From Elusimicrobiota bacterium (GTDB lineage Bacteria > Elusimicrobiota > Elusimicrobia > UBA1565), in the NCBI GenBank assembly GCA_043827405.1, contig JBDRPD010000054.1:1-64000 (forward strand): a stretch of DNA of 64,000 nucleotides. Reading direction: 5' to 3'. This document shows positions 9,333 to 26,784 of the stretch, in pieces. A program made the position numbers and the translations under genes. The notes under the pieces were generated by a model. That model ran no database searches, was not told the DNA's origin, and worked only from the letters and a program-made list of their open reading frames with translations. The stretch's first letter is position 1, and each line of letters opens with the position of its first letter.

Positions 9333-9391
9333 CTTCGCCGACTACACTTTCCCTATAGATAGATTCCGCGGTGAATGTTAGGGAGGAGACG

Positions 9392-9799
9392 ATGACGAGC
9401 CGGATTCTGGTAGTTGACGATGACGAAAGGCAGCTGCGCAGTTTCTCGCGGACGCTTTCGCTTCAGGAGGGCTGGGAGGTGTTTACCACCTCTACCGCCG
9501 ACAGCGCGCTCACCAAGACGGAAGAGCTGCGCCCTGACCTGGTTATTTTGGACTGCGATCTCGGGGGAGAGCGGCCGGAAAAAGATGGTTTCTGGGTGCT
9601 GCGTCAGCTGCGCAAGAACGCGCTTTTCAAGCGCTTGCCGGTGATCTTTCTAACCGGCGCCCGGGTGAGCGTCGAAGATCGGGTTGCCGGCCTGGACCTG
9701 ACGGCCGACGACTATATCTTGAAGTCAGCGGATCCCGAAGTGATCCAGATTCGCGTCCAGGCCGCCCTGGACAAGGATAGGGAGCAGTATCGCGCATGA
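9392..9799 (+). CDS. Single-domain response regulator (receiver only)
   Basis: ILVVDDD, PDLVILD (phospho-Asp), VIFLTG, DDYILK. RBS GGAGGAG before ATG 9392. Confidence 0.9.
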   Translation: MTSRILVVDDDERQLRSFSRTLSLQEGWEVFTTSTADSALTKTEELRPDLVILDCDLGGERPEKDGFWVLRQLRKNALFKRLPVIFLTGARVSVEDRVAGLDLTADDYILKSADPEVIQIRVQAALDKDREQYRA

Positions 9800-12700
9800 G
9801 CCGACGCTCCGGCCGGCGGGAAGCGGGAAGGAAGAGCGCTGCGGGTATCGCGGCGCTTTTCCTGATTCTCGCTTTCGGCGGCCGGAGCGGACATGCCCAG
9901 CAGGCAACGCAGACCAACGCACCCAGTCACTCCGAGTTCGCGCTCAACGAGGTGGAACTGGCGGCGCAGGTAATCCGTACCGACAATCTCAGCGGCGTGC
10001 CGGGCCTCACGGTGACCTTTTTCTTCAACGGGTCATCGCAGACGGCGGTCACCGACGCCAACGGCGACGCCACCACGACCTATGCCATGATCTCGGCCTC
10101 CGGCTCCTACGTCTACGGCGCCGCCTGGCTCGGTGACGGCAGCTTCGCGGCCAGCTATTCCACGCGGCCGGTCACCATCAACAAGCGCCCGACCAATATG
10201 GTGCCGTTCGGCTCGGCGGGCTTCGCGCTGGAAAACGTGGAGCCGACCGCCCGTCTGATCGACGGCCTGACCGGCCTCGGCGTGCAGGGGAAGTCGGTGG
10301 ACCTCTGGTTCAACGGCTCGACCCAGACGGCGACCACCGACAGCCAGGGCGACGCGACCAAAAGCTTCTCGGCGCCGGCGACCGCCAGCACCATGCCCTT
10401 TACCGCCACCTTCATCGCGGACGCAATCTATGCCGGCAACAATACGGCCGGGACCGTGACGGTTCAGCGGCGTCCGACGACGCTGTTTCCCGACAACGTC
10501 GACGTCTCCATCAACGCGGACTTCGAGGTGCAGGCGCGGCTCAAGGATACGCGTTCGGGCGGCAACCTCGAGGGCAAGACCATCGATTTCGAGTTCGCAG
10601 GGACGGAGAAGTCGGCGCTGACCAACTCCGTAGGCATCGCCACCGTCACCTATACCGCGCCGGCGGCCACGGGAACCTACACCTATACGGTCGACTTCAG
10701 CAGCGACGCGACCTATGAGGCCTTCTCCGAGACGGGGACGGTGATCGTAGATCTGATAAATACTCTGGTCGTGCCGGTGGACGTGGCGGTGATCTCATCG
10801 GCCAACTTCCTGGCCCGGGCGCAGCTGATCAATACCGACAGCTCGCTCGGCATTCAGGGCAAGACCCTGAAGTTCACCTTCAACGGCTCGACGCTGACCA
10901 ACGTCACCGACTCCTTCGGTATCGCCGGGGTGACCTTCAAGGCCGATATTCTGCCCAGCACCGCGCCTTTTGTGGCGGCCTTCACCGGCGATACGGAGTT
11001 CAAGGCCGGGACCGGGACCGGTACGGTCACCATCAATCAACGGCCGGTGGACGTAACGGCGATCGACGCGAGCGGAATAACCCCCTCTACTTTGTTTATC
11101 GCCTCGGCCACTTTGGCCGATCAGACGACGGGCGGTCCGATCTCGAGCCATACCCTGTCGTTTCTGTTTCAGGGCACCACCGTTTACGGTACTACCAATG
11201 ACGTCGGCCTGGCGACCGCCGCTTTCACCGCGCCCGCCGAGATCGGTCTGTTTAATTTCTACGTGCGCTTTTCCTCGACCATCCTCTACTCGCAGGACAA
11301 CGATACCGGGACGGCCAATGTCCAGAAGATCAATACTCTGCTCTCGGCCGACGACGTCGTGGTTCCGGCCGACACGCTGTTCACCGCCACCGCGACTTTG
11401 ACCGAGGCGGGCAGCGGCGACCCGATCGCCGGCAAGACCGTGACCTTCACCTTCCAGGGACATGTTCAGACCGGGGTTACCGATGCGTTCGGCCAAGCCA
11501 CGACGACCTATATCGCGCCGTCGATCCTGCAGACCTATCCGCTGTCGGTTTCCTTTGCCGGGGACATCACCTACTTCAGCGACAATGACGCGGCCATCGT
11601 TAATGTAATCAAGCGGGAGGTCATGCTGACGCCGGATGAGGTGACGGTGCGCATCGATGAGACGTTTATCGCCACCGCCACCCTCGTCGACGGCTTCGAC
11701 GGCAGCCCGGTGGACGGCGAAAGCATCGAATTCGTCTACGCAGGGAGCACTTTGACCGCGGTCACCGGCGAGTTCGGCGTGCCGGGCGTGGCCACCGTGA
11801 CTTTCTCGGCCCCTTCATCCTCGGCCACTTTGGAGTACACCGTCGAGTTCTTCGTCAACGGCCTATATGAAGGCAAGAAAGAGACCGGCACGGTCAACGT
11901 CATCCTGCCGCCGACCGAGCTGGCGGTCGACGAGGTCAACGTCTTCGCGCTCGGCGTCATCTATGCGACGGCGACCTTGACCGTGGTGGATACGGGCGCT
12001 CCGCTGTCGGGCCGTACGGTGCGGCTTATTTTCGCGGGCTCCACCGTCACCCGCACATCCAACGGCTCGGGCGTGTCGTCGACTACCTTCGCCGCGCCTA
12101 CCACCACCGGAACCTATACGCTGTGGGCGGAGTGGGACGGCGAGACCGACGTCTACGGCGCGACGATCGGTTCAGCCGCGGTGAACGTCCTGGAGCGGCC
12201 GGCGGTCCTTGGGGTTTCCAGCGAAACGGTCACCGTCTCCGCGCTGTTTACGGCTTCGGCGACCTTCACCGACGATCAGAGCAACCCCGTCCTGGGCGCC
12301 ACGGTCTACTTCCTGCTTGACGGCTCGACGCAGACGGCGCTGACCGACGCCCTGGGTTTGGCAGCCACGGACTTCTACGCGCCGGCGTCATCCGGCACCT
12401 ACGAACTGCAGGGTACCTTCGAGTCCAGCGGGACCTATGCGGGCCGGGTATCGTCCGCCGCGCTGACGGTGCTGCCGCGCGCCATGACGCTCTCCGCCGA
12501 TGCGGCCGCGGCCGTCGTCAACGAGGTATTTACCGCCAGCGCTACCCTCACCGTCGGCGGCTCGCCGCTGGAGGGGGTAACGATTCGCTTCGTCTTCAAC
12601 GGCGCCAGTCATACCGCGGTCACCGACGCTCTGGGCGAGGCCACGACCGATTATGCCAGCCCGGCATCGTCGGGCACTTTCGTTCTCGAAACATTCTTTG

Positions 12701-15700
12701 ACGAGACCCCGGTCTACGGCTTCGCGCAGGACACCGCGGATATTACCGTGGCGCCGCGCGCCACCGCGCTCGACGCCGAACCCGGCGCGGTGGTGATCAA
12801 TGAGTTGTTCACCGCTACGGCGACCTTGACCGATTTCGCGGGCCCCGTGGCAGGCCTGACCGTGCGCTTCGTCTTCGCCGGCGCGACCCAGACGGCGGTT
12901 ACCGATGCCCTGGGCGTGGCGACGACGGACTACGCCACGCCGGCGTCCACCGGCACCTTCAATCTGGAGGCCTACTTCGACGCCGATGCCGTCTATGCCG
13001 GCGCCGGCGAGGTGGAGGCGGTTTCGGTGCTGCAGCGGCCGACCGATCTGGCGCTCGATACCGTGACCGTGCGCATCAACCAGGTCTTTATTGCCACCGC
13101 GACCTTGACCGACTTGTACGCCGAGGACGCCGGGATCGCCGACAAGACGATCGATTTCCTGTTCGCGGGTACGCCGAAGTCGGCGCTGACCAGCGGCGTC
13201 GGTCTGGCTTCGGTGACCTATACCGCGCCGGCCTCCTCCGGCCCGTTTTCGCTGCAGGCAACCTACGACGAGGAGGTGATTTACGCGGCCTCTTCGAGCG
13301 TCATCTTGGTGCAGGTGCTCGGCGATGCCGCCGAGCTCTCCGCTCCGGCCGAGAGCCGCGAGATCAACAAGGTGTTCACCGCTTCCGCGACTTTGACCAG
13401 CGGCGGCTCGCCCGTCGATGCTCATACCCTGCGTTTCGTCTTTAACGGCGCGACCCATACGGCGACGACCGACGCTCTCGGCCTGGCTACCTCCGACTAC
13501 GCCATGCCGGCCGCTTCGGGGACCTATATCCTGGAGATCTACTTCGACGGCACGCCGGTTCTCGACGTCTCCTACTCGACCGCGGAGATCGCCGCCCAGC
13601 CGATTCCGGCCGTGCTCTCCGGCGAGAGCGATACCGTCAACGCGCTGGAGGACTTCAAGGCCACCGCGACGCTGACCGGCACCTACGGCCTGGTGCAAGG
13701 CGAGACGGTGCGCTTCGTGCTCAACGGCGCCACCCAGTACGCCGAGACCAACAGCGCCGGCGCAGCCACCGCGACCTACAAGGCGCCCGCCGCCTCGGGG
13801 ACGCATATGCTGGAGTTCTACTACGACGGCAGCCCGGAGTACGACGTCTACGTCACCACCGAGGAGCTGACCGTTCTGCAGCAGGCGACGACTTTGGACG
13901 TCAAAGCCGATACGGTCGCCGTCAATACGCTGCTGATCGCCACCGCGACCTTGAGCCATTCGACCGGGGTGCTGGCCGGCATGCCGATCGAGATAACTTT
14001 CGAGGGCGAGACGCATACCGTCTACACCAACGCTCTCGGCGAGGCCACCACGGGCTTTACCGCTCCGCTCACCTCGGGTACCTATAATATCAGCGCGCAG
14101 TACAACGAGACCGCGACCTACGTGGCCTCCAGTTCCGATACGGACGTCGACATCATGCAGCGCGTGCCGTATCTCGCGATCACCCCGGCGACGGCCATGG
14201 TCGACGGGGTGTTTACGGCCAGCGCCACGCTTACCGACTTCGCGGGCGGGGTGGCCGGCAAGACTATACGCTTCGTCTTCAACGGCGCCAGCCATACCGC
14301 GGTCACCGACGGGCTGGGCCTGGCCACCACCGACTACGCCGTGCCCGAGACCTCGGGGACCTACCGCATCGAGGCCTACTTCGACGAGGACGCCGGCTAC
14401 GAGTTCGCCGGCACGACCGACGCGCTGACGGCGCTGCCGATCCCGGCCGTGCTCTCGGGCCCGAGCATCTCGATCGGCCTCAGCGAAATCTTTACCGCCA
14501 CCGCGACGCTGACGTCGAGCACCGGGCCGCTCACCGGACACGCCATCCGCTTCCTCTTTGCGGTCGCGATCCAGACCGACACCACCGACGGGCTCGGCGA
14601 GGCGACGACCACCTTCTTCTCGCCGTCGTCCTCCGGCACCTATCAAGTGAATTTCGAGTATGACGGGACGCCGCGTTTCGCCGCCATCACCTCCACCGCC
14701 GAGGTCATCGTCCTGCCCGACGCGACGTCTCTGACCGCGCCGGCCACGGCGGCTCTGGCCCTGGAGTCCTTCATCGCCAGCGCGACTTTGACCAGCGGCG
14801 CGAACCCGCTGGCCGGCGAGACCCTGCGCTTCTCGATGGAGGGGACCACGCTGACGGCGGTGGCGGTAACCGACGCGGTCGGCGTAGGCGCGACGATCTT
14901 CCCCGCGCCGGCGTCTTCCGGCACCTATAAGCTGGTGATCGAATACGACGGCAGCGGCATCTACGGCGTGGCCGCCAGCACCGCGGAAGTGGTGATCTCA
15001 TCGCGCATCACCTCCGTCTTCACCTCCTCCGATACGACGCTGACCCTGGACATCTTCACCGCCGCCGCTGCCTTGAGCGACAAGGCCGGCGCGGTCGCAG
15101 GCCAGACCATCCGCTTCGTCTTCGCCGGCGCCACCCAGACGGCGGTCACCGACGCGCTCGGCGTCGCGACGACCGACTATGCCGCGCCGGCGGCCTCGGG
15201 TACCTACCAGCTCGACGTCTTCATGGACGCCACGTCGACCTATGACCTGTCCTACGCCTCCGAGACCATTAAGGTCGACGGGCGCTTTACGGATGTCGTG
15301 CCCAGCAGCGCGGCGACCTTGGTCAGCGCTGTGTTCACCGCCAGCGCTACGCTGACCGATCCGCTGGGCGCGGTCGTCGGCAAGACCGTCTCCTTCCACT
15401 TCAACGGCAGCACGCAGACGGGCATTACCGATGCCCTCGGCCTGGCCACCACCGATTTCGCCTCGCCCGTATCTTCCGGCACCTATCTATTGGAGGTCAC
15501 CTTCAGCACCAGCCCGACCTATATCGGCGCCTCGTCCTGGACCTACGTGGACGCCGCGCCGCGGCCGACGGGGCTGGCGGCGGAGGCCGTACTGATCAAT
15601 ATCAACGAGGTCTATACGGCGACGGCGACGCTGACCCATTCGACCGGCACGCTGGCGGGGCATACGGTGCGCTTCGTGGTCGACGGCACGAGCCAGACGG

Positions 15701-18700
15701 CGGTGACCGACGCTTTGGGCGTCGCCGCCACGGACTACACGGCGCCGGACTCCACGGGCACGCTGGTCCTGGAGATCTACTTCGACGAAACGCCGCACTA
15801 CGGCTTCTCGCAGGCGACCGAGACCATCGTCGTCGTCGGGCGTCCGACCGAGGTTTCCGGGCCGGCGGCCGCCGTCGAGGTGGGCCGGATCTTCACCGCT
15901 TCGGCGACGCTAGTCGACGTCAGTACCGGGCCGCTGGAGGGGCATACGGTGCGCTTCGTCTTCAACGGCGCCACGCATACCGCGGTCACCGACGTTCTCG
16001 GCGAGGCCACCACGGACTATGCCTCGCCGGCGTCTTCCGGCACGTATACGCTGGACATCTACTTCGACGGCACCCAGTACCATGCCCCGAGCGTCTCCAC
16101 CGCCGAGGTGACGGTCACCCCGATCCCGACCAGCCTGGCCTTCGAAGTCCCGGTCGCCTCCGCGGCGGCGGTGTTTACGGCTTCCTCGACCTTGTCGCAG
16201 TACGGCACCCCGATCGCCGGCGAGACCGTTCGCTTCGTCCTCGTCAGCACCACGCATACCGATACCACCGACGGGCTGGGCCGCGCCACCACGGACTATA
16301 CGGCGCCGGCGGCTTCGGGGACCTATCCCATCGGCGCCTACTTCGACGGCACCAGCGCGCTCGCCGAGTCGAGCGCCACCTTGACGCTGACGGTCCTGCA
16401 GCGCGAGTCGTATATCGCGGTTGAAGCGGTCGCCGCGACCGCCAGCGTGGTATTTAAGGCCACCGCGACCTTGAGCGATATGGACGGCCCGGTCGCCGGG
16501 AAGACCCTCTCCTTCTTCCACCGGGGCAGCACCGAGACGGCGGTCACCGACATCCTGGGCGTGGCAACGGTCTCGTTCACCGCTTCCGCCTCCTCGGGGA
16601 CTTTTCCGCTAAGCCTGACTTTGGACGAGGATGCGGCCTATGTATTGACTACCGCATCGGCCGCGGTGACCGTCGCGCCCCGCCCGACCTCGATCGCTGT
16701 GGACTCGGCGACGGTCGCCGCGCTTGATCTTTTCATCGCGACCGCGACCTTGACCGATATCGACGGCGCGGTCGCCGGCGAGACCATGCAATTTGTTCTC
16801 AACGGCATCACGCAGACGGGCGTCACCGACGCCCTGGGCGTCGCGACCACCGGCTTCTACGCTCCGGTTTCGTCCGGTACCTATGCCATCGACGTCACGA
16901 TCGCCGAGACTCCGGCTTATGCGGCGGCTGCCGCCTCGGCCGCTGCCGTCGTAGTGCAGCGCGCCATCCAGATTCGCGGCACCAATATCACGGTGGAGGA
17001 GCTGACGCCCTTTATCGCGGTAGGCAACCTGTTCGACAAGGCTACCGGAGCGCCGCTCGTGAACAAGGATATCGAGTTCTTCTTTGAGCCGGCCGGTTCC
17101 TCGACCGATACTCAGCCGACCAACTCCCTGGGCCGGGCCACCGCGACCTACAGCTCACCTGGCACCGTGGGCAGTTACTTCTACAATGTAACCTTCCTCG
17201 GCGACGCCACCTACGAGACCGGAAACTCTACCGCCATCGTCTTCGTCGGCGAGGCCACCAACCTGCTGGCGCAGGATGTGGACGCGGTGGTTAACAGCAG
17301 CGTTACCGTGATGGCGACTCTGCGTGACGGCTTCGCACAAGCGGTTGTCGGAGAGCAGATTACTTTTACTTTTCAGGGCTCATCGATCACCTCGGTAACC
17401 GACGCCGAGGGTATCGCGCGCGCCACCTTCACCACGCCCGGGACAGGGGGAGACTTTGCCTACCTGGCGGAGTTCGCCGGCAACGGGACCCTCTCGCCGG
17501 CGTCCGACGAGGCCACGGTTCATGTCTCACTGAATATTAGCCTGCTGGCGGCGTTCGACGCTACGGCCATCCAAAACCGGGCATTCCAAGCCAAGGCCAA
17601 GCTGATCGACGTCAGCGACGGCGACGGCATCGCCGGCAAGTCCATAGACTTCCTATTTGGAGGAACGCCCTTGTCCGGTGTTACGGGAAGCGACGGCGTC
17701 GCCGCCGTAACCTTCTCCGCTCCCAACAGCACGGGGACTTATACCTTTACCGCCGACTTCGCGGGCGACGCGACCTACTCCGGCAGCGATTCGACCGGCA
17801 CCATCACCGTGCTCGAGGCCAGCGGCGAAGCCGGCGCCAATCCCACCAAGATTAATGCGCTGAAGATCACGGCGCGAGCGGAAACCGTGTTCGCCGCGCG
17901 GGCGACCTTGATCGACCTAAATGTAAATGCCGGACTTTCCGGCAAGCCGCTGTTGTTTATCTTCGGCTCATCCAGTACGCTGACGACGACGAATTCGGCC
18001 GGAGTCGCCCAGGCGACTTTTACCGCGCCGTCATCCTCGGGCGCCTTGGTCTATACCGTTCAGTTCGCCGGCGACGGTCAGTTCTCCTCAAGCCAGGCCA
18101 CCCAGACCGTGGCGGTCGGCCTGCTCGCCCCCCGCGATCCCGCCGGTCTGCAGGCCGCGGTTCTCTCGGCGACGCAGATGCGGCTGACCTGGCAGCCTGT
18201 GACCGCGGCGGAAAGCGGCGAAGACATGACGGCGCTGGTCGCCGAATACTGGGTAGAAAAGGCCGTGGATCCGGCCGGCAGCTGGACCTCGACGGCGGTG
18301 GTCTCGACCACTTCGGCGCTGGCCTTCACCGCCGACATCGAGGCCGCCGCGGTCTATTATCGGGTGCGGACTCTTAGCACGCAGGGAGAGTCCAGCCGAG
18401 GCCTGGCCATAGCCGAGGTGTCGGCCGCGCCGCAGGCCGTCTTTATGGCGCCGGATAATGAAGCCTGGGTCGCGCTTCCCGAAGGCGCGCGCGCCTTGAT
18501 CGCGAGCAAGTACGGCGCGGGAGCCGGTGTCCAGGTGAGCTCGGAAGCGCCGGGCGGCTTCCTCAGCATCTACAACTATCAGCTGGTGCGCGACGGTGAG
18601 ACGCTGATCGACGCGGCCGCCGGCGAGGGCCGTTACGGCGCGCAGATCGTGCTCTCCTATGCCGGCCTCGGCAGCGGCGCCGCAATGCAGGCGGACCAGC

Positions 18701-19125
18701 GGCAGGTCGTCTACTGGCACAACGGGGTGGAGTGGGTCAAGCTGGGCGGCCAGAACGACGCCCTGCGCAGCCGCATCTCGGTGCGCTCCAACCGCCTGGG
18801 CCGCTTCGCTCTGGGCTACGGGACGCTGGCCTCCGACTTCTCGCTGACCAAGGTGGCGCCCCGCATCTTCACGCCGGGCGCCGCGGACATAACGATCAAC
18901 CGCGCGGTTTTCTATTTCGAAAACCCGGCGGACAACGATGTCACGATCCGCATATTCGATATCACCGGCGCCGTCGTCCGGAGGAACCTCCTGCGCGACG
19001 GCAGCAACATGATTTATTGGGACGGCAAGGACTCCGGCGGGACGGAAGTCAAGGGCGGGGTGTACATCTACCAGATCGAGGGAGATGACGAGGTGCATAC
19101 GGGCACCGTCGTCGTGGCGAAATGA
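9796..19125 (+). CDS. Giant surface protein/adhesin: about 29 Big_1-like Ig repeats, an FN3-like domain and a C-terminal FlgD-Ig/T9SS-type sorting domain
   Basis: Signal peptide. Repeats of about 97 aa with consensus FTASATLT..AG.TVRFVFNG.T.TAVTDALG.ATTDY.AP..SGTY. MRLTWQPV...YYRVRT is FN3-like. C-terminus PRIFTPG...IRIFDITG...WDGKDSGG..VKGGVYIYQI...GTVVVAK. Confidence 0.9.
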   Translation: MSRRSGRREAGRKSAAGIAALFLILAFGGRSGHAQQATQTNAPSHSEFALNEVELAAQVIRTDNLSGVPGLTVTFFFNGSSQTAVTDANGDATTTYAMISASGSYVYGAAWLGDGSFAASYSTRPVTINKRPTNMVPFGSAGFALENVEPTARLIDGLTGLGVQGKSVDLWFNGSTQTATTDSQGDATKSFSAPATASTMPFTATFIADAIYAGNNTAGTVTVQRRPTTLFPDNVDVSINADFEVQARLKDTRSGGNLEGKTIDFEFAGTEKSALTNSVGIATVTYTAPAATGTYTYTVDFSSDATYEAFSETGTVIVDLINTLVVPVDVAVISSANFLARAQLINTDSSLGIQGKTLKFTFNGSTLTNVTDSFGIAGVTFKADILPSTAPFVAAFTGDTEFKAGTGTGTVTINQRPVDVTAIDASGITPSTLFIASATLADQTTGGPISSHTLSFLFQGTTVYGTTNDVGLATAAFTAPAEIGLFNFYVRFSSTILYSQDNDTGTANVQKINTLLSADDVVVPADTLFTATATLTEAGSGDPIAGKTVTFTFQGHVQTGVTDAFGQATTTYIAPSILQTYPLSVSFAGDITYFSDNDAAIVNVIKREVMLTPDEVTVRIDETFIATATLVDGFDGSPVDGESIEFVYAGSTLTAVTGEFGVPGVATVTFSAPSSSATLEYTVEFFVNGLYEGKKETGTVNVILPPTELAVDEVNVFALGVIYATATLTVVDTGAPLSGRTVRLIFAGSTVTRTSNGSGVSSTTFAAPTTTGTYTLWAEWDGETDVYGATIGSAAVNVLERPAVLGVSSETVTVSALFTASATFTDDQSNPVLGATVYFLLDGSTQTALTDALGLAATDFYAPASSGTYELQGTFESSGTYAGRVSSAALTVLPRAMTLSADAAAAVVNEVFTASATLTVGGSPLEGVTIRFVFNGASHTAVTDALGEATTDYASPASSGTFVLETFFDETPVYGFAQDTADITVAPRATALDAEPGAVVINELFTATATLTDFAGPVAGLTVRFVFAGATQTAVTDALGVATTDYATPASTGTFNLEAYFDADAVYAGAGEVEAVSVLQRPTDLALDTVTVRINQVFIATATLTDLYAEDAGIADKTIDFLFAGTPKSALTSGVGLASVTYTAPASSGPFSLQATYDEEVIYAASSSVILVQVLGDAAELSAPAESREINKVFTASATLTSGGSPVDAHTLRFVFNGATHTATTDALGLATSDYAMPAASGTYILEIYFDGTPVLDVSYSTAEIAAQPIPAVLSGESDTVNALEDFKATATLTGTYGLVQGETVRFVLNGATQYAETNSAGAATATYKAPAASGTHMLEFYYDGSPEYDVYVTTEELTVLQQATTLDVKADTVAVNTLLIATATLSHSTGVLAGMPIEITFEGETHTVYTNALGEATTGFTAPLTSGTYNISAQYNETATYVASSSDTDVDIMQRVPYLAITPATAMVDGVFTASATLTDFAGGVAGKTIRFVFNGASHTAVTDGLGLATTDYAVPETSGTYRIEAYFDEDAGYEFAGTTDALTALPIPAVLSGPSISIGLSEIFTATATLTSSTGPLTGHAIRFLFAVAIQTDTTDGLGEATTTFFSPSSSGTYQVNFEYDGTPRFAAITSTAEVIVLPDATSLTAPATAALALESFIASATLTSGANPLAGETLRFSMEGTTLTAVAVTDAVGVGATIFPAPASSGTYKLVIEYDGSGIYGVAASTAEVVISSRITSVFTSSDTTLTLDIFTAAAALSDKAGAVAGQTIRFVFAGATQTAVTDALGVATTDYAAPAASGTYQLDVFMDATSTYDLSYASETIKVDGRFTDVVPSSAATLVSAVFTASATLTDPLGAVVGKTVSFHFNGSTQTGITDALGLATTDFASPVSSGTYLLEVTFSTSPTYIGASSWTYVDAAPRPTGLAAEAVLININEVYTATATLTHSTGTLAGHTVRFVVDGTSQTAVTDALGVAATDYTAPDSTGTLVLEIYFDETPHYGFSQATETIVVVGRPTEVSGPAAAVEVGRIFTASATLVDVSTGPLEGHTVRFVFNGATHTAVTDVLGEATTDYASPASSGTYTLDIYFDGTQYHAPSVSTAEVTVTPIPTSLAFEVPVASAAAVFTASSTLSQYGTPIAGETVRFVLVSTTHTDTTDGLGRATTDYTAPAASGTYPIGAYFDGTSALAESSATLTLTVLQRESYIAVEAVAATASVVFKATATLSDMDGPVAGKTLSFFHRGSTETAVTDILGVATVSFTASASSGTFPLSLTLDEDAAYVLTTASAAVTVAPRPTSIAVDSATVAALDLFIATATLTDIDGAVAGETMQFVLNGITQTGVTDALGVATTGFYAPVSSGTYAIDVTIAETPAYAAAAASAAAVVVQRAIQIRGTNITVEELTPFIAVGNLFDKATGAPLVNKDIEFFFEPAGSSTDTQPTNSLGRATATYSSPGTVGSYFYNVTFLGDATYETGNSTAIVFVGEATNLLAQDVDAVVNSSVTVMATLRDGFAQAVVGEQITFTFQGSSITSVTDAEGIARATFTTPGTGGDFAYLAEFAGNGTLSPASDEATVHVSLNISLLAAFDATAIQNRAFQAKAKLIDVSDGDGIAGKSIDFLFGGTPLSGVTGSDGVAAVTFSAPNSTGTYTFTADFAGDATYSGSDSTGTITVLEASGEAGANPTKINALKITARAETVFAARATLIDLNVNAGLSGKPLLFIFGSSSTLTTTNSAGVAQATFTAPSSSGALVYTVQFAGDGQFSSSQATQTVAVGLLAPRDPAGLQAAVLSATQMRLTWQPVTAAESGEDMTALVAEYWVEKAVDPAGSWTSTAVVSTTSALAFTADIEAAAVYYRVRTLSTQGESSRGLAIAEVSAAPQAVFMAPDNEAWVALPEGARALIASKYGAGAGVQVSSEAPGGFLSIYNYQLVRDGETLIDAAAGEGRYGAQIVLSYAGLGSGAAMQADQRQVVYWHNGVEWVKLGGQNDALRSRISVRSNRLGRFALGYGTLASDFSLTKVAPRIFTPGAADITINRAVFYFENPADNDVTIRIFDITGAVVRRNLLRDGSNMIYWDGKDSGGTEVKGGVYIYQIEGDDEVHTGTVVVAK

Positions 19126-21032
19126 GGACGCGGAAACTCGGCTCAGCCGTTCTGCTCGCGGGAGCGCTGCTCGCCGCGCTCCCCGGCCGTGCCCGCGCGT
19201 CCTTTGAGGATACGGAATTCGGACCGCGGGGGACGGCCATGGCGGGCGCGGTGGCTTCCAATATGCCCCATGCCACCGCCATGTTCTACAACCCCGCGCT
19301 TATGACGGGAGTTCAGACCCCCGAGTTCTTTACCTCCTACGAGAATATGTATATGGGCCTTACCGACGGCAGCAAGCTGACGCGGCAGCTGCTCGCCCTG
19401 GCTTATCCGCTCAATCGCGGTCGCCGGGGGTATTTGGGATTGGGCGTCAATATGTTCGCGCTGGATGCGCTCTATAAAGAGCAGGCGATCATGCTGAACT
19501 ACGGCCGCGCGGTCGGCAAGAAGCTCAGCTGGGGCCTGGGAATCCGTCAGCTCTCAGTGACTTACGGCTCCGATGAATACACGACCGGCAAGGCGGAGTC
19601 CGCGGCCGGCGGCAGCGCGTCGGCCATGGGGCTGGACCTGGGAATTCAGTACCGGAGCAAGGGGCGCCGCATCGGCTTCGCGATTCTCAACGCCAATGAG
19701 CCGGACCTCGGCATCGTGTCGGCCAATAAAGTGGACCGCACGATAAATATCGGTATCGCGAAGATGCAGCCGACCTGGGAATGGCAGAACCAATTAACCC
19801 GCACCGGCGCCGACATCCGCCTCAAGTCGGGCCTGGAGCACCGGGGCGCCTTCAAGAGCGTCGCGCTCCGCGTCGGCTTCAGCATCGGCTCGCGCCAGTA
19901 CCGCAATATCGCCATGGGCTTCGGATATATCCGGGAGAAGTTCCAGATCGACTACGCCATGCTGATGCCGGTGAGCGGAGTTTCCTCCGGCATGGGTAAT
20001 CATCAGGTGGGTCTGACCTGGAGGTTCGGCCGGGGCAAGCGGCGCAAGGAGAAGGAGCCCAAGCGGGATGACGATGACGAGGAGCGGATCATCGTCGCTC
20101 CGGCGACGACCACGGTGCAAATTTCACGGCCGGCCATCGTTATGGAAATGGCCCGCAAGCAGGCCGATTCCCTGGTCTCGGACGCTATGGGCATGCTCGA
20201 TGTCGCGGACTATGACGGAGCGCTCAAGAAGCTGCGCAAGGCGAACGACCTGCCGGTGGAGGATCCGCAGTACAAGATGCTCGAGGTTCGAGTAGCGGCC
20301 GTGGCGCGGCTCGACCCCAGCATCAAGGGCGGCTACACCAAGAACCGGCTGGTCCGGCGCGGGCTCAGCGCCTTCGCTCTCGGCGACGGAAAGACGACTC
20401 TCGAATCGCTGCTCTACGCCAAGCAGAAATGGCCCAGCGACAAGGAGATCGAAAGGCTTTACGAGCTGGCCGCGCGCCAGTATCCGGACATCGGCGCGCG
20501 CATGAAGCCCATCCAGGGGCTCAACGTGGCGGATCAGAAGCTCGAAGAGGCGCTGTCGCTGATCTACGACGGACAGTATACGGCCGCGGTGACCCTGTGC
20601 CAAGAGGTCCTGGAGCTTGAGCCCAACAGCGTGCTGGCGCTGGTGCGGCAGGGATCGGCGTATTGGGCGCTGGGACGGCGCCAGACCGCGCGGGCGGTAT
20701 GGAAGCGCGCATTGGAGCTGGACCCGGGGAACAAGGACGTGCTTGAGTTCCTTAACCGCAAGGAGCCCGCGCCCGCGACGCCGTCGCCTGGCGCGCAGCC
20801 TTCGGTGAAGCCTGTCGCCGAGCCTGCCGCCCAGCCGGCCGTACAGCCGGCGGGCAAGCCGTCCGCGGAGATTGAGAAGCAGTACAAAGAGCAGGTGGAA
20901 TACTACAAGCGCATGCAGCGCATGGGGGTCAATAAGCACATGCTGGAGCTGATCCTCAAGCAAATGGTTCGGCGCTTTGAAGGGACCGGCATCGACATGA
21001 AATACCTCAAGGAGGAAGCCAAGAAATACTGA
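19122..21032 (+). CDS. PorV/PorP(FadL)-like outer-membrane beta-barrel fused to C-terminal TPR repeats
   Basis: Signal peptide, GPRGTAMAGA...MFYNPAL N-terminal hatch motif, alternating beta-strands ending NHQVGLTWRFG, then TPRs (VLELEPNSVLALVRQGSAYWALG, WKRALELDPGN). Confidence 0.8.
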   Translation: MRTRKLGSAVLLAGALLAALPGRARASFEDTEFGPRGTAMAGAVASNMPHATAMFYNPALMTGVQTPEFFTSYENMYMGLTDGSKLTRQLLALAYPLNRGRRGYLGLGVNMFALDALYKEQAIMLNYGRAVGKKLSWGLGIRQLSVTYGSDEYTTGKAESAAGGSASAMGLDLGIQYRSKGRRIGFAILNANEPDLGIVSANKVDRTINIGIAKMQPTWEWQNQLTRTGADIRLKSGLEHRGAFKSVALRVGFSIGSRQYRNIAMGFGYIREKFQIDYAMLMPVSGVSSGMGNHQVGLTWRFGRGKRRKEKEPKRDDDDEERIIVAPATTTVQISRPAIVMEMARKQADSLVSDAMGMLDVADYDGALKKLRKANDLPVEDPQYKMLEVRVAAVARLDPSIKGGYTKNRLVRRGLSAFALGDGKTTLESLLYAKQKWPSDKEIERLYELAARQYPDIGARMKPIQGLNVADQKLEEALSLIYDGQYTAAVTLCQEVLELEPNSVLALVRQGSAYWALGRRQTARAVWKRALELDPGNKDVLEFLNRKEPAPATPSPGAQPSVKPVAEPAAQPAVQPAGKPSAEIEKQYKEQVEYYKRMQRMGVNKHMLELILKQMVRRFEGTGIDMKYLKEEAKKY

Positions 21033-21046
21033 ACAAGACGGGACGG

Positions 21047-22585
21047 ATGCGGCCAATGAAGACAACTTTGCTCTGCTTAATTTTATTGATGCTCGGCGTG
21101 CCCGTCCTGGGCGCCCAGCCTCCTGTTCAGCCGCCGACCAGCGGGCGGATGCTGCAGGAGATCCACGCTTTGATGCTCGAGCAGCAGATGGAGGATCGTC
21201 TGGCCGGCAGTTTGCGCTTTGAGCTCGGGACGCAGAACGTGATGGTGCTGGCGCGTATCCGGCTGATGGAGAAGCCCGCCGCCGGGCCCGGACCGGGGAG
21301 CGCGCAGTCTCTCGCCCCCAGCCTTACCGGGAACCTGCTGCCGGGCGTCCCCGCCGACCGGGGATTGCCTAATGTCATCAACGAAAAGAAGCCGGTGCCG
21401 ACGACGGAGGTCCTGCAGCTGGTCAAGCATGTCACCGTGATACTGGGCAAAGATATTCCCCGGGACCGGTCCCAGCGGATCAAGCAGCGCACCACGGAGC
21501 TGCTCGGGTTGGACCTGGAACGCGGGGACACCGTTTCGGTCGAGTTTCAGGCGCCCGCGCAACCCCCCGCGCCGGGTGACGGCAAAAGCAAGACGTCGGG
21601 AGACGTCGCCGCATGGCAGCTCGACGCATTGGTCCTGCTGCTGCTGCTCTTTCTGGGATTTTCGATACTCTTTATGCGGCTGCTCCGGGTTTCGTTCGGC
21701 GACATATCGGCCGGCCTGGCGGCGATCCCGAAGGCGGTATCCGGCGGCGGTGGCGGAGGAGGGGGTGGAGGAGGCGGCCGTGTGGAGTTGACGGGCGCCG
21801 AGATGGCGGCCGCGGCGCAGGATGCCGGACCCGCACGCTTCGGCTTCGTCAACCGCGCCAATCTGGAGCGCTTTCTCGAAATTCTCGCGAAATCGAGCGC
21901 GAGCGACCTTTCGGTGGTGCTGGAATGCCTGCCCGATCGCATGGCCGCGGCCGTATTCAACCGGCTGCCGACCGAGCTTCAGGGGGAACTGCTCGTGTAC
22001 GGCCGGGAGGCTCGTCACTCGGACCCCAAGGAGGTCGAGCGGATCGAAGAGCGGCTGCGCCAGGAGATGGGCTTCGGGCACGGCGGCCTGGACAAGATGA
22101 GCATGCTCCTCCAGCGCGCGGACGACGAGGCGCAGACGGAAATCATGAAGGTCCTCGAAGAGAAGGAGCCCGAGCTGGCGAAGAAGCTATCCGATAATCT
22201 CTTCGATTTCAAGGAGGTGCTCTACTACGACCAGAAGAGCATCCAGCGCATATTCCGCGAGATCGGCATCGAGAGCTTCGTGCGCCTCCTGGAGCCGTTC
22301 GATGAGAGTCTGCGCGAGGAGTTTTACGAGAAGCTGAGCCCCGATGTGGTGACCATGCTCAAAGAGCGGCTGCAGGTGATACCGCAGGTGTCTTCCGAGG
22401 AGTGGAAGGAAGACAGCCTCGGGGCGTTCGAGAAGATCAAGCGGCTGGGGACGCAGAATATCATTCCGCCGTTCGGCAAGATCAGCCGCAAGCGCAACCC
22501 GGCGCTGCAGGATGAGGCCGCGCTGCGGGATGCGGCGGACATGGACGAAAATCCTGAGACGGGTGAAGATCCGGATATGGAGTAA
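21047..22585 (+). CDS. FliF ring-building domain / TM / FliG middle and C-terminal domain fusion protein
   Basis: Periplasmic part MEDRLAGSLRFELGTQNVMV and IKQRTTELLGLDLERGDTVSVE resembles FliF RBM3. One TM and a poly-Gly linker follow. GGLDKMSMLLQRAD...EKEPELAKKLSDNLFDF...DQKSIQRIFRE resembles FliG. Confidence 0.78.
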   Translation: MRPMKTTLLCLILLMLGVPVLGAQPPVQPPTSGRMLQEIHALMLEQQMEDRLAGSLRFELGTQNVMVLARIRLMEKPAAGPGPGSAQSLAPSLTGNLLPGVPADRGLPNVINEKKPVPTTEVLQLVKHVTVILGKDIPRDRSQRIKQRTTELLGLDLERGDTVSVEFQAPAQPPAPGDGKSKTSGDVAAWQLDALVLLLLLFLGFSILFMRLLRVSFGDISAGLAAIPKAVSGGGGGGGGGGGGRVELTGAEMAAAAQDAGPARFGFVNRANLERFLEILAKSSASDLSVVLECLPDRMAAAVFNRLPTELQGELLVYGREARHSDPKEVERIEERLRQEMGFGHGGLDKMSMLLQRADDEAQTEIMKVLEEKEPELAKKLSDNLFDFKEVLYYDQKSIQRIFREIGIESFVRLLEPFDESLREEFYEKLSPDVVTMLKERLQVIPQVSSEEWKEDSLGAFEKIKRLGTQNIIPPFGKISRKRNPALQDEAALRDAADMDENPETGEDPDME

Positions 22586-22597
22586 GCGGGAGGGGAC

Positions 22598-23356
22598 ATG
22601 GCTTTGCTGTCATTACTCGGACTATTGCTGGGCCTGAGCACGGTGGCTTACGTGCTGTGGGACGGCGGCATCATCGCCGTTTTCGTCAACGTCAACGCCA
22701 TTATTCTGGTTTTCGGCGGCACTATCGGCGCCACCATGATCACCTACCCCTGGAAGATCGTGAAGCAGCTGCCGCGCGCCTGGTGGATTGTGTTCTTTCC
22801 CCGGAAAAGCCGCGATCCGCAGGAGCTTATCGATCAGCTGATGGATATCCAGCAAGTCGTTTATACCGGCGGGATCGACGACGTAGACATCAATACCATC
22901 GGCGACGGCTTCCTGCGCTCCGGTCTGCGCATGATCCTCGAGGAGCAGTCCGAGCAGGACCTGCGCGATGAGCTGGAGACGGAGGTGTTCTACGAGCGTC
23001 AGCGCAAGCAGCGCGTTATCGATGTGTTTCGCGCCATGGGGGACTTCGCCCCCATCTTCGGTCTCCTCGGGACGCTCATCGGCATCGTCCAGGTGCTGAA
23101 ATTTCTCGGCAGCCCCGAGCAGATGGGCAACTATATGGCGCTGGCCATCACCACCACGTTCTACGGCATCTTCGGCTGCAACTTCATCTTTTTGCCCACC
23201 GCGGGCAAGCTCGAAGGGTATTCCGAGGATGGTTTGCTGCTTATGGACCTCATTATCGTGGGGGTCCTCAGCATCCGGCGCCGCGAGCGTCCCACCGTGA
23301 TGCGCCGCCGGCTGGAGCGCTTTCTGACGCAGCGGCGCAAGGCGGCGGTGAAATAA
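22598..23356 (+). CDS. motA: MotA/PomA-type stator subunit
   Basis: IILVFGGTIGA, DGFLRSGL, APIFGLLGTLIGIVQVL, MALAITTTFYG, FLPTAGKL. Confidence 0.88.
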   Translation: MALLSLLGLLLGLSTVAYVLWDGGIIAVFVNVNAIILVFGGTIGATMITYPWKIVKQLPRAWWIVFFPRKSRDPQELIDQLMDIQQVVYTGGIDDVDINTIGDGFLRSGLRMILEEQSEQDLRDELETEVFYERQRKQRVIDVFRAMGDFAPIFGLLGTLIGIVQVLKFLGSPEQMGNYMALAITTTFYGIFGCNFIFLPTAGKLEGYSEDGLLLMDLIIVGVLSIRRRERPTVMRRRLERFLTQRRKAAVK

Positions 23357-24024
23357 TGCGCGGCAAGCGTACCGTCAAGGCCCGGCCGAAATCGCAGGTA
23401 TGGCTGACGGTATACAGCGACATCGTCACCAACCTGATGATGTTTTTTCTCGTGCTCTACGCCAGCACCCGGTTCTCGGCGGACGTGCAGCAGAAGGTGA
23501 CCGCGAACGTCATGCAGACCTTCGAATCGGCCGAGAAGCGGCAGGAGCAGGCGCAGGTTCAGGAATCCGCGCTCGCGAGCCTGCAGGCGCTGCAGGAGCT
23601 CGGCGCGGAGCTGCGGGTCGCCGGCATCAGCATGAAGAAGGAGCATGACGGCGTAACGCTGCAGCTGCCCGAGGCCGACTCCTTCGACTTCGGCCGCGCC
23701 GAGCTCAAGCCGGAGATGCGGAAGATTCTCGACGTCATCGGCCCGCCGCTGCGCAAGTACCCGCATGTCATCATCCTGGAGGGCCACACGGACGACCGGC
23801 CGATGCATGCGAAGTCGCCGTACCGGACCAACTGGGAGCTCTCTTTCGCCCGGGTGCAGAGCGTGCTGGGCTACCTGGTGACCGAGAAGCACCTGCCGCC
23901 GGAGCGGCTGGTGGCGATCGGCCGGGGCGAGCATCGTCCGGTAGTGCCCAACGATACGCCGGAAAATCGCGCGCGCAACCGGCGCACGGAGATCAAGCTG
24001 CGTGCCGCGGAGATCGATCCGTGA
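23356..24024 (+). CDS. motB: MotB-type stator subunit with OmpA-like peptidoglycan-binding domain; conserved Asp present
   Basis: WLTVYSDIVTNLMMFFLVL, EGHTDD, NWELSFAR, NRRTEI. Confidence 0.88.
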   Translation: MRGKRTVKARPKSQVWLTVYSDIVTNLMMFFLVLYASTRFSADVQQKVTANVMQTFESAEKRQEQAQVQESALASLQALQELGAELRVAGISMKKEHDGVTLQLPEADSFDFGRAELKPEMRKILDVIGPPLRKYPHVIILEGHTDDRPMHAKSPYRTNWELSFARVQSVLGYLVTEKHLPPERLVAIGRGEHRPVVPNDTPENRARNRRTEIKLRAAEIDP

Positions 24025-24695
24025 GCAAGTCCATCCGCGAGGCGATCGCCGTCCGGAAGAGAATGGACTGGCAGATCATTTATGTCAACCTGATGACTTT
24101 GCTGATGATCTTCTTCATGGTGATATACTCCATGGAGTCCGTGGGCCAGGCCACGGGCCGGGAGACCGACTACGAACGCGTGATCGGCGTGATTCAGGGA
24201 ATGTTCGGCGGCGAATCCAATGTGCTCCGCGTCAGCCGCGCCGAGCGCCGCGATAAAGAAAAGCGCCTGGTCGAAGACCTCAAGTCCCTGGACTCCGCGG
24301 CGGCCGAAGTGGAGGTTACGCGGGAAAAGATCAAGGTGACCATGCCGAGTCCCGTTCTGTTCGACTCCGGTTCGGCCGATCTGCGGCCGGAATCGGTTAA
24401 AGTTCTCGGCGGCCTCGCTTCGCGGCTGCGCAGCCTGGAAGGCAACCGCATCGTGATCGAGGGGCATACCGACGATAAGCCGCTGCTGCCGGGCTCGGCG
24501 TTCAAGGACAACTTCGAGCTGTCGGCGCGCCGCGCGCTGGGAATCCTGTATTTTCTGACGGAGCAAGGCGGTATGCCCCCCGCCTCGCTTACGCCGGTAG
24601 GCTATGGTGAGTTCCGTCCGGCGGCTCCCAACACCTCAGCGGCGAACCGCGCCAAGAACCGTCGTATCGAAATTCATATAATTCGGGAAAAATGA
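24021..24695 (+). CDS. Second MotB paralog with the TM Asp replaced by Asn
   Basis: [46 protein letters not shown]. Confidence 0.85.
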
Positions 24696-26104
24696 GATTG
24701 AAGTGGCGCATCATGATGTTGAGCGCCCTGCTGGTGACCGGCCTGGTCTCGGTCACTATGGGCCTCCTGTACCGGGCGCAGAAGCGGCAGCTTTTGCAGC
24801 GCCTGGAAAGCGAGCGGCATCAGGCGCTCACGCGTATGGCGCGCGTCTGCCGCGAGACCCTGGAGGCGGAGTCGGAGATTATCCTGCTCAACGACATGAA
24901 GCTTTCGCTCGAGGCCTACCCGATACTGAAGATCGGACTGTGGGATACGCGGGGGCGGCTGCAGATCCATTCGGACTTCGTCGAAGGGCGCTACGACGGA
25001 GTGGGCAAGCACGCGCAGGATCCCTTTGTCGCGCGGGCCAATAAAGCCGACGGCGTGATCTCCGAGCGGGCGGGCCGCGTCCTTAAGCTGGCCAGTCCCG
25101 TGCACATGAAAGGCAAGCGCTTCGGCTCGGTGGTGGCGCATTACGATCTGGACCGGATTGAAGGGAGCGTGAGCGCGGTGCTGCGCGGGCAGCTGCGCAT
25201 GCTGGCGCTGGCCGGGGCCGGAGCGCTGGTCGTCGGGCTTTTGGGCTCGCTGCTCCTGGCGTCGGCGGTTTCCGAACCGGTACGCCGCCTGAGCGAGGCG
25301 GCGCGGCGCTTCGGCAGCGGCGACTTCGACAGCTTCTCGGGGATTCATCGCAAAGATGAGCTCGGCGCGCTGTCGCGGGACCTCGATGCCATGGCCGCGC
25401 GGCTCAAGGAGCTGGATCAGATGAAGGATCGCTTCATGCAGAGCATGTCGCATGATATGCGCTCGCCGCTGGCGGTGATGCAAAGCTCGCTGCACCATGC
25501 CAAGAAGACGCTGGACAAGGGCGCAGTAGACATAAAGGAAGACCTCGAGGATATGGAGCAGGCGGTTCAGGACCTGCTCAAGTTCGTCAATAATATTCTC
25601 GATTTGGCCAAGCTCCAGGCCGACCGGGTGGAGTTCAGCATCGTGCCGGTCAAGGTTACCACGATGCTGGACCGGACGCGCCTGTCCTTCCGTCGGCTGG
25701 CCGAACAGCGCAAGATTTCGCTCAAAGTGGAAACCGCGGAGAAACTGCCCAAGGTGCGGGCCGATCATGAGTATATTCACCATGTGGTATCGAACTTGGT
25801 GATGAACGCGATCAAGTTCACTCCCGAAGGCGGGTCCATTCGAGTATCCGCCAGCGATGAGGGCGGCATGGCGCGGATTACGGTGCGCGATACCGGCCAT
25901 GGGATTCCCCAGGATCGGCTCGACAGCGTGTTCGGCCGCTTCGAGCAGGTGAGCGAGGCGCGCAAGAAGAGCTCCGGCGGGCCGGGAACCGGGCTCGGGT
26001 TGTCCATCGCCAAGGAAATCGTCGAGCGGCATGGCGGGCGAATCGGCGTCGAATCCGAACTCAACAAGGGATCGGCGTTCTTTTTTACGCTGCCGTACGC
26101 CTAG
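24692..26104 (+). CDS. HAMP-containing sensor histidine kinase
   Basis: Two TMs, HAMP ([13 protein letters not shown]), H-box SHDMRSPL, N-box [21 protein letters not shown]. Confidence 0.93.
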
Positions 26105-26106
26105 CC

Positions 26107-26784
26107 ATGAAGCCGAAGATCCTCATCGTCGATGAAGAGCGGGCGGGCGGCGAAGCGGCCGCGGCGCTGGAGGCGGCCGGCTGCCGCGCCCAGACGGTCG
26201 CGACGGGTGAAAAAGCCGTCGGTCTGCTGGCTTCTTTCAAACCCGACGTGCTGATTACTGAGATCGAGCTGCCCGGCATTTCGGGCTTTGCCCTGCTCGA
26301 TGTCGTGGGGGGCGAGAAGGCGGCGGAGGGCACGCGGACGATGGTGGTCACCTCTGATCCCGGCCGCGATATCGTGGCCCGCGCCTTCGAGAAGGGCGCC
26401 GAGGATTTTTTGGTCAAGCCCTTCGACATCCGCGAGCTGGTAGCGCGAGTCGAGGTTCTGCTGCGCCGAATGCGCCGGGAGCCCGTAAGCGAGCACATCC
26501 GCTGGGGGACGCTGTCGTTGGATGCGAACTCACGGCGCGCCTTCGTGGGCAAGCAGGCGGTGCGCCTGACCAAAGTGGAGTTCGGGGTGCTGCTGCTGCT
26601 GGTGCAGAAGGCGGGCCGCATCCTGCCCCGCGACTATCTGCTGCGGTACCTGTGGGGAGGCGCCGCTCAGGGGCGGACGCGCACGGTGGATATGCATGTC
26701 GCCAATATCCGGCGCAAGCTCGGCAAGCTGGGCCGGTCGATCGAGACGATCAAGGGCGTCGGCTACCTGCTGCCCCGCGCTTAA
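26107..26784 (+). CDS. OmpR/PhoB-family response regulator with atypical receiver (phospho-Asp replaced by Glu)
   Basis: ILIVDEE, PDVLITEIELPG, DFLVKPF, winged helix RTVDMHVANIRRKL...GVGY. Confidence 0.9.
   Translation: MKPKILIVDEERAGGEAAAALEAAGCRAQTVATGEKAVGLLASFKPDVLITEIELPGISGFALLDVVGGEKAAEGTRTMVVTSDPGRDIVARAFEKGAEDFLVKPFDIRELVARVEVLLRRMRREPVSEHIRWGTLSLDANSRRAFVGKQAVRLTKVEFGVLLLLVQKAGRILPRDYLLRYLWGGAAQGRTRTVDMHVANIRRKLGKLGRSIETIKGVGYLLPRA

Follow-up and report, generated by a model that had tools for sequence, protein, structure and literature searches.

Why would a bacterium without a flagellum keep the core of a flagellar motor, and what would that motor drive? The question is raised by a gene at positions 21047–22585 (forward strand) of a 64,000-nucleotide stretch of the Elusimicrobiota contig JBDRPD010000054.1 (assembly GCA_043827405.1, lineage UBA1565; the whole stretch is called the window below). 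An initial annotation, made from the letters alone, had read its product, P0001, as a natural fusion of the rotor proteins FliF and FliG. To our knowledge both are treated as flagellum-only parts, and we found no characterised system in the open literature that uses FliF or FliG with MotAB outside the flagellum. We find that P0001 is such a fusion and that it belongs to an envelope machine built from the flagellar rotor–stator core. This machine is real and conserved and seems not to have been described before; its function we infer. The fusion is very probably a functional, non-flagellar partner of the MotAB stator. Our preferred reading, which we hold with a probability of roughly 0.45, is that of an ion-driven ring motor coupled through a tetratricopeptide repeat (TPR) module to a giant adhesin on a PorV-like outer-membrane barrel, which it moves, rotates or tensions.

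The reading frame of P0001 is open over 512 residues, and its hydrophobicity (Kyte–Doolittle, 19-residue window) has two peaks, 2.0 at residue 6 and 2.7 at residue 195. The true start may be Met4 (position 21056), since one contig of a second strain (depth 5.4) is without the initial ATG and the protein as recorded in the ESM Atlas begins at residue 4. We assigned the following parts:

21047–22585, forward strand: fusion of the FliF ring-building motif RBM3, a transmembrane segment and the middle and C-terminal domains of FliG (P0001; 512 residues, or 509 if it starts at 21056)
21056–21115, forward strand: putative N-terminal signal peptide or signal anchor, residues 4–23 (hydrophobicity; helix 4–22 in the model)
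21137–21559, forward strand: single RBM3-like ring-building motif (RBM), residues 31–171 (hhalign, AlphaFold model, superposition)
21605–21685, forward strand: transmembrane helix, about residues 187–213 (AlphaFold model, hydrophobicity)
21743–21778, forward strand: run of 12 glycines, residues 233–244, a low-confidence cytoplasmic linker replacing FliF-C and FliG-N
21833–22489, forward strand: FliG middle and C-terminal domains, residues 263–481 (profile, 1lkv and fold matches)

Judged by its sequence matches, the C-terminal half of P0001 is FliG and not MgtE, a rival identity that the initial annotation had itself raised. Pfam FliG_C matched above its cut-off (E 6.5e-15), whereas FliG_M (E 3e-4) and MgtE_N (E 9e-4) each stayed below theirs, and the fold matches were to FliG, so MgtE was dropped. 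The FliG-MC structure 1lkv from T. maritima matched residues 265–467 (E 2.6e-16), and the AlphaFold model of P0001 (mean predicted local-distance difference test score, pLDDT, 80.6; predicted template modelling score 0.50) superposed on FliG-C with Z 12.3 and a root mean square deviation (rmsd) of 2.0; FliG chains led the Foldseek ranking for this model, followed by FliF. The motifs quoted in the initial annotation could all be located, with the RBM3-like segment at residue 153, KSSASD at 282, GHGG at 344 and LFDF at 385. As it had proposed, there is one transmembrane helix, the GG hinge is retained and the MFxF hinge reads LFDF, while the EHPQ motif is lost, its positions being occupied by SSAS; the torque helix carries D433, E440 and R441. 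The glycine linker had been counted as 11 residues and has 12. Its codons are mixed, so it is no artefact of slippage, and runs of at least five glycines are rare in the family (8 of 63 members).

A word-index protein search with P0001 came back blank, which was an artefact of sensitivity: when the search was made exhaustive, 1,474 relatives appeared at E ≤ 0.001, many of them matching across the full length. We aligned P0001 with 96 of 150 listed relatives, picked by length and coverage. Across these 97 rows, FliG_C was matched in 97, FliG_M in 87 and YscJ_FliF_C in 52; YscJ_FliF, which covers RBM1 and RBM2, was not among the 25 of 34 Pfam families shown for the aligned homologues, a set that includes every family with at least two members. 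The GG hinge is nearly invariant in the alignment. Compared with flagellar FliG of the same phylum, the family profile aligned from FliG residue 114, skipping FliG-N (probability 99.5). The labels of ESM Atlas clusters include Cloacimonadota, Bdellovibrionota, Balneolota, Bacteroidota and Myxococcota; we examined genomic context inside Elusimicrobiota only.

P0001 by itself gave no Pfam match in its N-terminal half. Aligned by hhalign to the FliF of a flagellated genome of the phylum, the family profile matched residues 234–385, that is, RBM3 only (probability 91.9, E 7e-7). The model gives residues 32–167 the α-β-β-α-β topology of an RBM and superposes best on FliF RBM3 (8z5v, Z 13.3, rmsd 2.0 over 100 residues; 6scn, Z 12.9), with PrgK, EscJ and SpoIIIAG fitting less well (Z 8.6–9.5). 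It leaves no room for RBM1 or RBM2, in agreement with the proposal of a single ring-building motif. Within this domain, an insertion at about residues 76–122, modelled with low confidence, sits in place of the β-collar hairpin and bears a conserved LPGVP; P99 and G100 are conserved in at least 90% of the 97 rows, and LPG followed by V, I or L is present in 47 of 63 fusions. These data, together with the FliG matches above, establish the FliF–FliG fusion. Neither of the two outcomes that the initial annotation had named as fatal to its view, an N-terminal region without an RBM fold or a C-terminal region closer to MgtE_N than to FliG, was observed.

The initial annotation's view of a fusion stood, but it missed the context. 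P0001 is one part of a conserved cassette. The genes around it overlap or are closely spaced and make up one tightly packed operon, as follows:

9371–9799, forward strand: single-domain response regulator (Response_reg E 7.9e-21), whose stop overlaps the start of the giant gene (ATGA)
9796–19125, forward strand: giant Ala/Thr-rich surface protein of 3,109 residues, with Ig-like repeats of about 93–95 residues and a putative C-terminal sorting domain of the type IX secretion system (T9SS) type
19122–21032, forward strand: PorV/PorQ-like outer-membrane β-barrel (residues 25–304) with a TPR module (about 337–545)
22598–23356, forward strand: stator A subunit of the MotA/PomA type, lacking the basic residue that usually faces FliG
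23356–24024, forward strand: MotB-1 (MotB_plug E 1.5e-9, OmpA E 5e-17), with the ion-binding Asp
24021–24695, forward strand: MotB-2, with the same plug/transmembrane and OmpA-like domains and Asn in place of the ion-binding Asp
24692–26104, forward strand: HAMP histidine kinase, whose start overlaps the MotB-2 stop
26107–26784, forward strand: OmpR-type response regulator, directly after the kinase

The giant protein matches Big_3_5 in 19 stretches (E 2.9e-85) and also Invasin_D3; its tail (residues 3041–3103) matches FlgD_ig, CHU_C and Por_Secre_tail below their cut-offs and TIGR04183 at 22 bits against a cut-off of 23. It is a likely adhesin and cargo. The barrel protein matches NF033709 below cut-off (E 5.7e-13), and its paralogue on contig C49 lies above that cut-off. 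Its model (pLDDT 83.3) has PorV as the best fold (6h3i_F, Z 32.8, rmsd 2.8), followed by the FadL family (Z 28–31), so that by modelled fold it is a PorV-family shuttle barrel, of either the PorV or the PorQ kind. A PDB sequence search with the PorV-like protein returned no match. The best NCBIfam matches of MotA are flagellar MotA, PomA and MotP (E 1e-41 to 3e-45, all below cut-off), with TolQ at E 0.005; the stator proteins of the window fit the flagellar families and not TolQ/ExbB.

The source genome (G000; 4.33 Mb, 98% complete) encodes no recognisable flagellum. Its nearest named relatives and the top Atlas clusters place it in Elusimicrobiota. The DNA occurs in groundwater metagenomes; two metatranscriptomes from that study gave no informative coverage. 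Searches for FliMN_C, FlhA, YscJ_FliF, the rod and hook domain Flg_bbr_C and CheW were all negative, with 4 to 8 of 14 control genomes positive per search (4 for YscJ_FliF). With the controls positive, the missing FliM/N, FlhA, YscJ_FliF and CheW mean that the organism has neither a C-ring switch nor an export gate nor control by chemotaxis. The initial annotation had proposed a one-protein rotor with neither switch nor chemotactic control, and no RBM1/2 to house an export gate: the lack of a gate is matched by the absence of YscJ_FliF and FlhA from the genome and the lack of switch and chemotactic control by that of FliM/N and CheW, while ring and rotation stay inferred. The genome has six FliG_C matches, namely five long fusions, which Pfam YscJ_FliF_C by itself fails to detect, and an 87-residue fragment (G000:C99:20211–20474, forward strand) that stands alone amid unrelated secreted-protein genes. 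Three of the five fusions, on contigs C54 (the window), C49 and C42, have the full order cargo, barrel, fusion, MotA, MotB; on C68 the order is fusion, MotA, MotB, MotB, TPR, and on C52 fusion, TPR. The C42 fusion and another at L013 (5911–8373, reverse strand) are preceded in the same chain by a histidine kinase (G000:C42:20691–23174, forward strand; whole chains of 827 and 820 residues), and with a kinase at their N terminus these paralogues would need an uncleaved N-terminal anchor. Long cytoplasmic coiled-coil genes with no Pfam family lie between fusion and motA on C49 (11697–13895) and C42 (23195–24364); a rotor scaffold in place of FliM/N is a possible role for their products.

The same genome encodes T9SS-like secretion parts. 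Profiles that started from the cassettes of this genome and went through two iterations yielded 27 sorting-domain genes and 28 PorV-like genes. For 24 of the 27, a PorV-like gene of their own comes next within 500 bp, an arrangement of one barrel per cargo. A SprA-like gene (G000:C17:8074–13803, reverse strand, L071; 1,909 residues) matches TIGR04189 with E 1.6e-42, at 145 bits against a cut-off of 200; its protein had no Pfam SprA_N match, in a search that had no positive control, and no PDB sequence match. The gene adjoins lptF/lptG-like genes. GldL, GldM and GldN were not found in searches in which no control genome was positive, and GldK was not searched. Cassette cargos in this genome measure 3,109, 6,155 and more than 2,534 residues, and giant cargos of 3,433, 3,589 and 5,597 residues have no adjoining fusion.

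We then asked how far the cassette extends across the phylum. Among 151 genomes, FliG_C occurs in 57, MotB_plug in 62, with the same family pattern, and FliMN_C in 4, whereas SprA-like proteins occur in 141, small-genome families that have no motor among them, and PorV-like proteins in 147. The fusion is missing from two such families (FliG_C in 0 of 45 and 1 of 44 genomes), whose small genomes mark them as probably non-motile symbionts. This absence fits the available text of bioRxiv 10.1101/2022.07.08.499144, in which symbiotic Elusimicrobiota are non-motile and most free-living ones hold orphan motAB and fliG genes of unclear role. In 14 of 14 selected fusion-free genomes, which lacked FliG_C and were negative with the family profile, SprA, PorV and tail-bearing cargo persist, with 1–29 sorting-domain matches each; two positive controls matched both profiles. 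Cargo in fusion-free genomes reached at most about 4,000 residues among the matches listed, and the open frames of cassette cargos in relatives run to 5,411, 5,969 and 17,343 residues. The longest of these (G065:C6) lies upstream of the fusion cassette L051, and a further sorting-domain frame, at G090:C18, has 14,374 residues.

For a closer view we sampled 61 fusion genes at 60 loci, from 20 of the 56 other FliG_C-positive genomes, picked for family spread, reading some 7 kb of 5′ and 6 kb of 3′ sequence, in some cases up to a contig end, and leaving out one flagellar FliG. In 34 of the 61, the same strand carries a PorV-like gene less than 2 kb upstream; a sorting-domain gene lies less than 6 kb upstream in 31 and MotA is nearby in 40; 21 have at least two MotB genes, and 4 have none of PorV, sorting domain and MotA. 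A profile of the TPR extension, built from 35 barrel-fused rows of these loci with none from the source genome, matched the barrel protein of the window with its own row left out (E 2.6e-48). It gave six strong matches in the source genome (E ≤ 2e-31; the next at 3e-7), five of which adjoin the five fusions, the sixth being 470 bp from a contig end. The module is present at 49 of the 60 loci, fused to a barrel in 35 (the profile-building rows) and as a stand-alone gene independent of the profile in 14, of which 11 have a hydrophobic, signal-like stretch in the first 40 residues. We take the module to be periplasmic and specific to the cassette. Evolutionary distances of the fusion co-vary with those of the TPR module (rho 0.72, n = 53) and of MotA (rho 0.78, n = 42), values that none of 500 permutations reached. 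The cassette has thus been inherited as a unit, a correlation that reflects shared descent, not binding. Many cassettes also have, just 5′ of the PorV–TPR gene, a small protein of 121–158 residues that is nearly pure sorting domain (G000:C42:18673–19080; L012, L021, L030, L037, L043, L045, L049, L051, L054, L060, L064 and L066), possibly a plug or cap; the cassette of the window has none.

An unrooted tree was built from the FliG region of 69 rows, without a single partial FliG and without rows of fewer than 150 residues. It separated 58 fusions, by a branch with 100/98 support, from six flagellar FliGs and a five-member second class of fusions. Several ancient paralogous lineages occur per genome. 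The nearest relative of P0001 in the tree, L054, has the same layout alongside, and a flagellated relative, G064, carries two such fusions besides separate FliF and FliG. The second class (L040, L046, L059, L061 and L069) consists of proteins of 611–653 residues that keep the R281-equivalent and adjoin MotAB, with no PorV-like gene. A label of "no RBM" for these five was dropped, as YscJ_FliF_C was matched in the two examined (E 1e-5 and 6e-4).

These results suggest a working scheme. P0001 would form a ring in the inner membrane through RBM3 contacts outside the membrane and stacking of FliG-M and FliG-C inside, by analogy with engineered deletion fusions: the available text of PMC7355467 reports that Salmonella FliF–FliG fusions without most of FliG-N are still motile, in line with what the initial annotation had stated. 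Ions would flow through a MotA5B2 stator, here probably built on a MotB-1/MotB-2 heterodimer with one Asp, and torque, unswitched and in one direction, would be exerted on FliG-C across a remodelled interface. The periplasmic TPR module would be bound by the insertion in the RBM that carries LPGVP. Cargo would be exported by the SprA-like translocon and then kept on its own PorV barrel, where the motor would move it, most plausibly for surface motility or adhesion control. Only tentatively do we go on to propose a second kind of bacterial rotary appendage, in which the FliF–FliG rotor, turned by MotAB (in some copies a heterodimeric stator with one ion-binding Asp), would spin or drag a giant Ig-repeat filament that leaves by a type IX-like translocon and stays on its own PorV–TPR barrel.

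Conservation of key residues bears on this scheme. We mapped 63 fusions of more than 400 residues through the flagellar FliG of L074, using what we take to be the E. coli numbering of FliG R281, D289 and R297 and of MotA R90. At the EHPQ positions, Glu occurs in 53, Pro in 44, Gln in 4 and His in none of the rows printed; 2 of 6 flagellar references likewise deviate there. The D289-equivalent is Glu in 30 of the 63, and 30 of 44 MotA proteins have a basic residue, Arg or Lys, at the R90-equivalent. Among 71 MotB/OmpA matches the ion-binding position is Asp in 52, Asn in 6 and unscorable in 13. In all 18 tandem MotB pairs that could be scored, Asp is present in the first member; in 5 of them, the pair of the window being one, the second member carries Asn. 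The available text of PMC7355467 gives EHPQR as the FliM contact.

Several observations weigh against a motor of this kind. The basic residues of the torque helix are lost, a loss that the initial annotation did not notice: 37 of the 63 fusions carry Gly at the R281-equivalent and 6 carry Arg, five of these six belonging to the second class, and the R297-equivalent is mostly small (Ser, Pro or Thr). In P0001 itself, D433 (R281-equivalent) and R441 (D289-equivalent) reverse the usual charges and the MotA of the window has Thr at the R90-equivalent, so the canonical charged rotor–stator pairs are not kept. P0001 also sits on a long branch, with at most about 26% identity to the other sampled cassette copies; its closest homologues have Asp, Glu or Ala at the R281-equivalent, so that the changed charge is a trait of the subfamily. 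In the two nearest named relatives that we found, MotA/MotB are encoded on the opposite strand and no barrel gene comes immediately before the fusion. Since 14 loci have a barrel-free TPR, and for 21 of 61 fusion genes the sequence read contained no MotA, the fusion is not always linked to PorV or cargo. No shaft or track spanning the periplasm (GldM, GldJ) was identified, the GldM search having had no positive control, and the genome has no CheW.

Ring and stator might instead serve as a dedicated export energiser that replaces GldLM/GldKN, pulls very large sorting-domain cargo through or off the SprA-like translocon and has no later part in movement, an explanation that we consider doubtful. 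SprA-like, PorV-like and cargo genes are all in the genome, the cassette cargos are among the largest, both here and in relatives (up to 17,343 residues), and GldL, GldM and GldN were not found, although those searches lacked a positive control. According to the available text of PMC11705866, Melioribacter and Ignavibacterium have PorV, SprA and Plug but none of the other T9SS proteins. The export parts are nevertheless near-universal in a phylum in which 57 of 151 genomes have FliG_C, all 14 fusion-free genomes keep sorting-domain proteins, and three giant cargos of the source genome have no fusion beside them. An obligatory T9SS motor was lowered in our ranking on these grounds. The persistence of export parts in genomes without the motor, and the absence of the motor from probable symbionts, are also why we prefer movement or tensioning of the adhesin to export and to each of the explanations that follow.

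A low-torque or non-rotating mechanosensor, in which adhesin load alters stator engagement or ion flux and a kinase reads the change, would account for the kinase and regulator translationally coupled downstream, the further regulator upstream, the kinases fused to the C42 and L013 paralogues, the eroded torque charges and the Asn of MotB-2. We regard it as improbable as the main job: sensing is compatible with a motor, and no kinase is among the open reading frames listed for the C49 cassette. Nor do we give much credence to a motor for some other envelope process, such as type IV pilus twitching (suggested in the available text of bioRxiv 10.1101/2022.07.08.499144) or outer-membrane remodelling, with the T9SS-like genes as merely linked neighbours. 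Such a process would suit the 14 cassettes whose TPR has no fused barrel and the several with large coiled-coil genes of no known family, but at 35 loci, and in three of the five cassettes of the source genome, the TPR is covalently fused to the PorV-like barrel, and chance adjacency would be roughly 1% (from 28 genes in 4.3 Mb). The view that a lost flagellum left the locus behind as a remnant in decay, or that the divergent copy in the window is non-functional, is hardly tenable and already largely refuted. Its long branch and lost charges might be read in that way, but the open reading frames are intact and tightly coupled, there are 1,474 homologues and several ancient paralogous lineages per genome, the same layout recurs beside L054, and G064 keeps two fusions beside its own FliF and FliG.

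Among known systems, the cassette would work in the manner of a flagellar rotor–stator core without belonging to it, as RBM1/2, switch, export gate and rod are missing, and its outer parts resemble the gliding machinery of the T9SS. It shares with the flagellar motor core the RBM3 fold, FliG-M/C with GG and MFxF-like hinges, a flagellar-type MotA, and a MotB with plug, OmpA domain and ion-binding Asp (MotB-1). It differs in that the rotor is a natural single chain with one RBM, a short insertion for the β-collar and one sure transmembrane helix, in lacking FliG-N, EHPQ, FliM/N, export gate, rod, hook, CheW and the basic torque residues, and in having several copies per genome and often two MotB paralogues, one sometimes without Asp. 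This comparison takes in the engineered FliF–FliG fusions of Salmonella and Vibrio (PDB 8z4d/8z4g). With the T9SS and gliding motor of Bacteroidota it has in common a barrel of PorV fold and a probable ion-driven rotary motor beneath, and it has a candidate SprA-like translocon and putative sorting-domain cargo, some of it giant adhesins built of repeats; here, however, each cargo has its own barrel, that barrel is fused to a TPR, the SprA-like score is below the family cut-off, and the motor parts are flagellar (MotAB with FliF/FliG), GldL/M/N being undetected in the uncontrolled searches. Injectisome PrgK/EscJ and SpoIIIAG/AH share the RBM fold (Z 8.3–9.5), match less well than FliF RBM3 and belong to systems without FliG or stator.

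The gliding motor of Myxococcus, AglRQS, has one gene for an A subunit and two for B subunits. The cassette resembles it in joining a stator A homologue to two different B subunits for a use without a flagellum, but differs in having a FliG rotor and a stator with plug, linker and OmpA-like domain. These stator features are lacking in AglRS, which is placed in an ExbBD/TolQR-like "generic" clade in the available text of PMC12505986, a comparison of flagellar and generic stators that, as far as that text goes, does not mention Elusimicrobia. We found no description of the fusion family or the cassette in the open literature, most subscription papers and supplements lying outside the reach of the search. 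The available text of PMC7031533 and PMC1586193 offered nothing of relevance. Older reviews of flagellar diversity, which the search did not retrieve, reportedly note that non-motile Chlorobium has a FliF/FliG-like orphan gene together with motAB.

A natural one-chain rotor offers a test of the minimal motor: whether a ring forms without an export gate, with what symmetry, and whether it turns without FliM/N or canonical charges. Natural Asp/Asn MotB pairs would likewise test the need for two ion-binding sites in a 5:2 stator. The cassette bears on what motAB and fliG do as orphan genes in Elusimicrobiota that have no flagellum, a question raised in the available text of bioRxiv 10.1101/2022.07.08.499144, and on how the SprA/PorV systems without other T9SS proteins in that of PMC11705866 work. 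Were the rotary appendage real, it would be a flagellar motor core working without the type III export apparatus, a form of surface motility not known before in free-living Elusimicrobiota and probably in other phyla, and a living model of a minimal rotor–stator stage in motor evolution.

Elsewhere in the window, an Rfam scan, which found no riboswitch at the fusion operon, identified a 2′-dG-II purine riboswitch at 35968–36036 (forward strand; 70.6 bits against a gathering score of 60). It lies directly 5′ of a gene for a 785-residue subtilase (36103–38460), an unexpected target. On the reverse strand, a gene for a 1,137-residue TPR–CHAT (caspase-like) protein (43894–47307) adjoins a DUF4384 gene.

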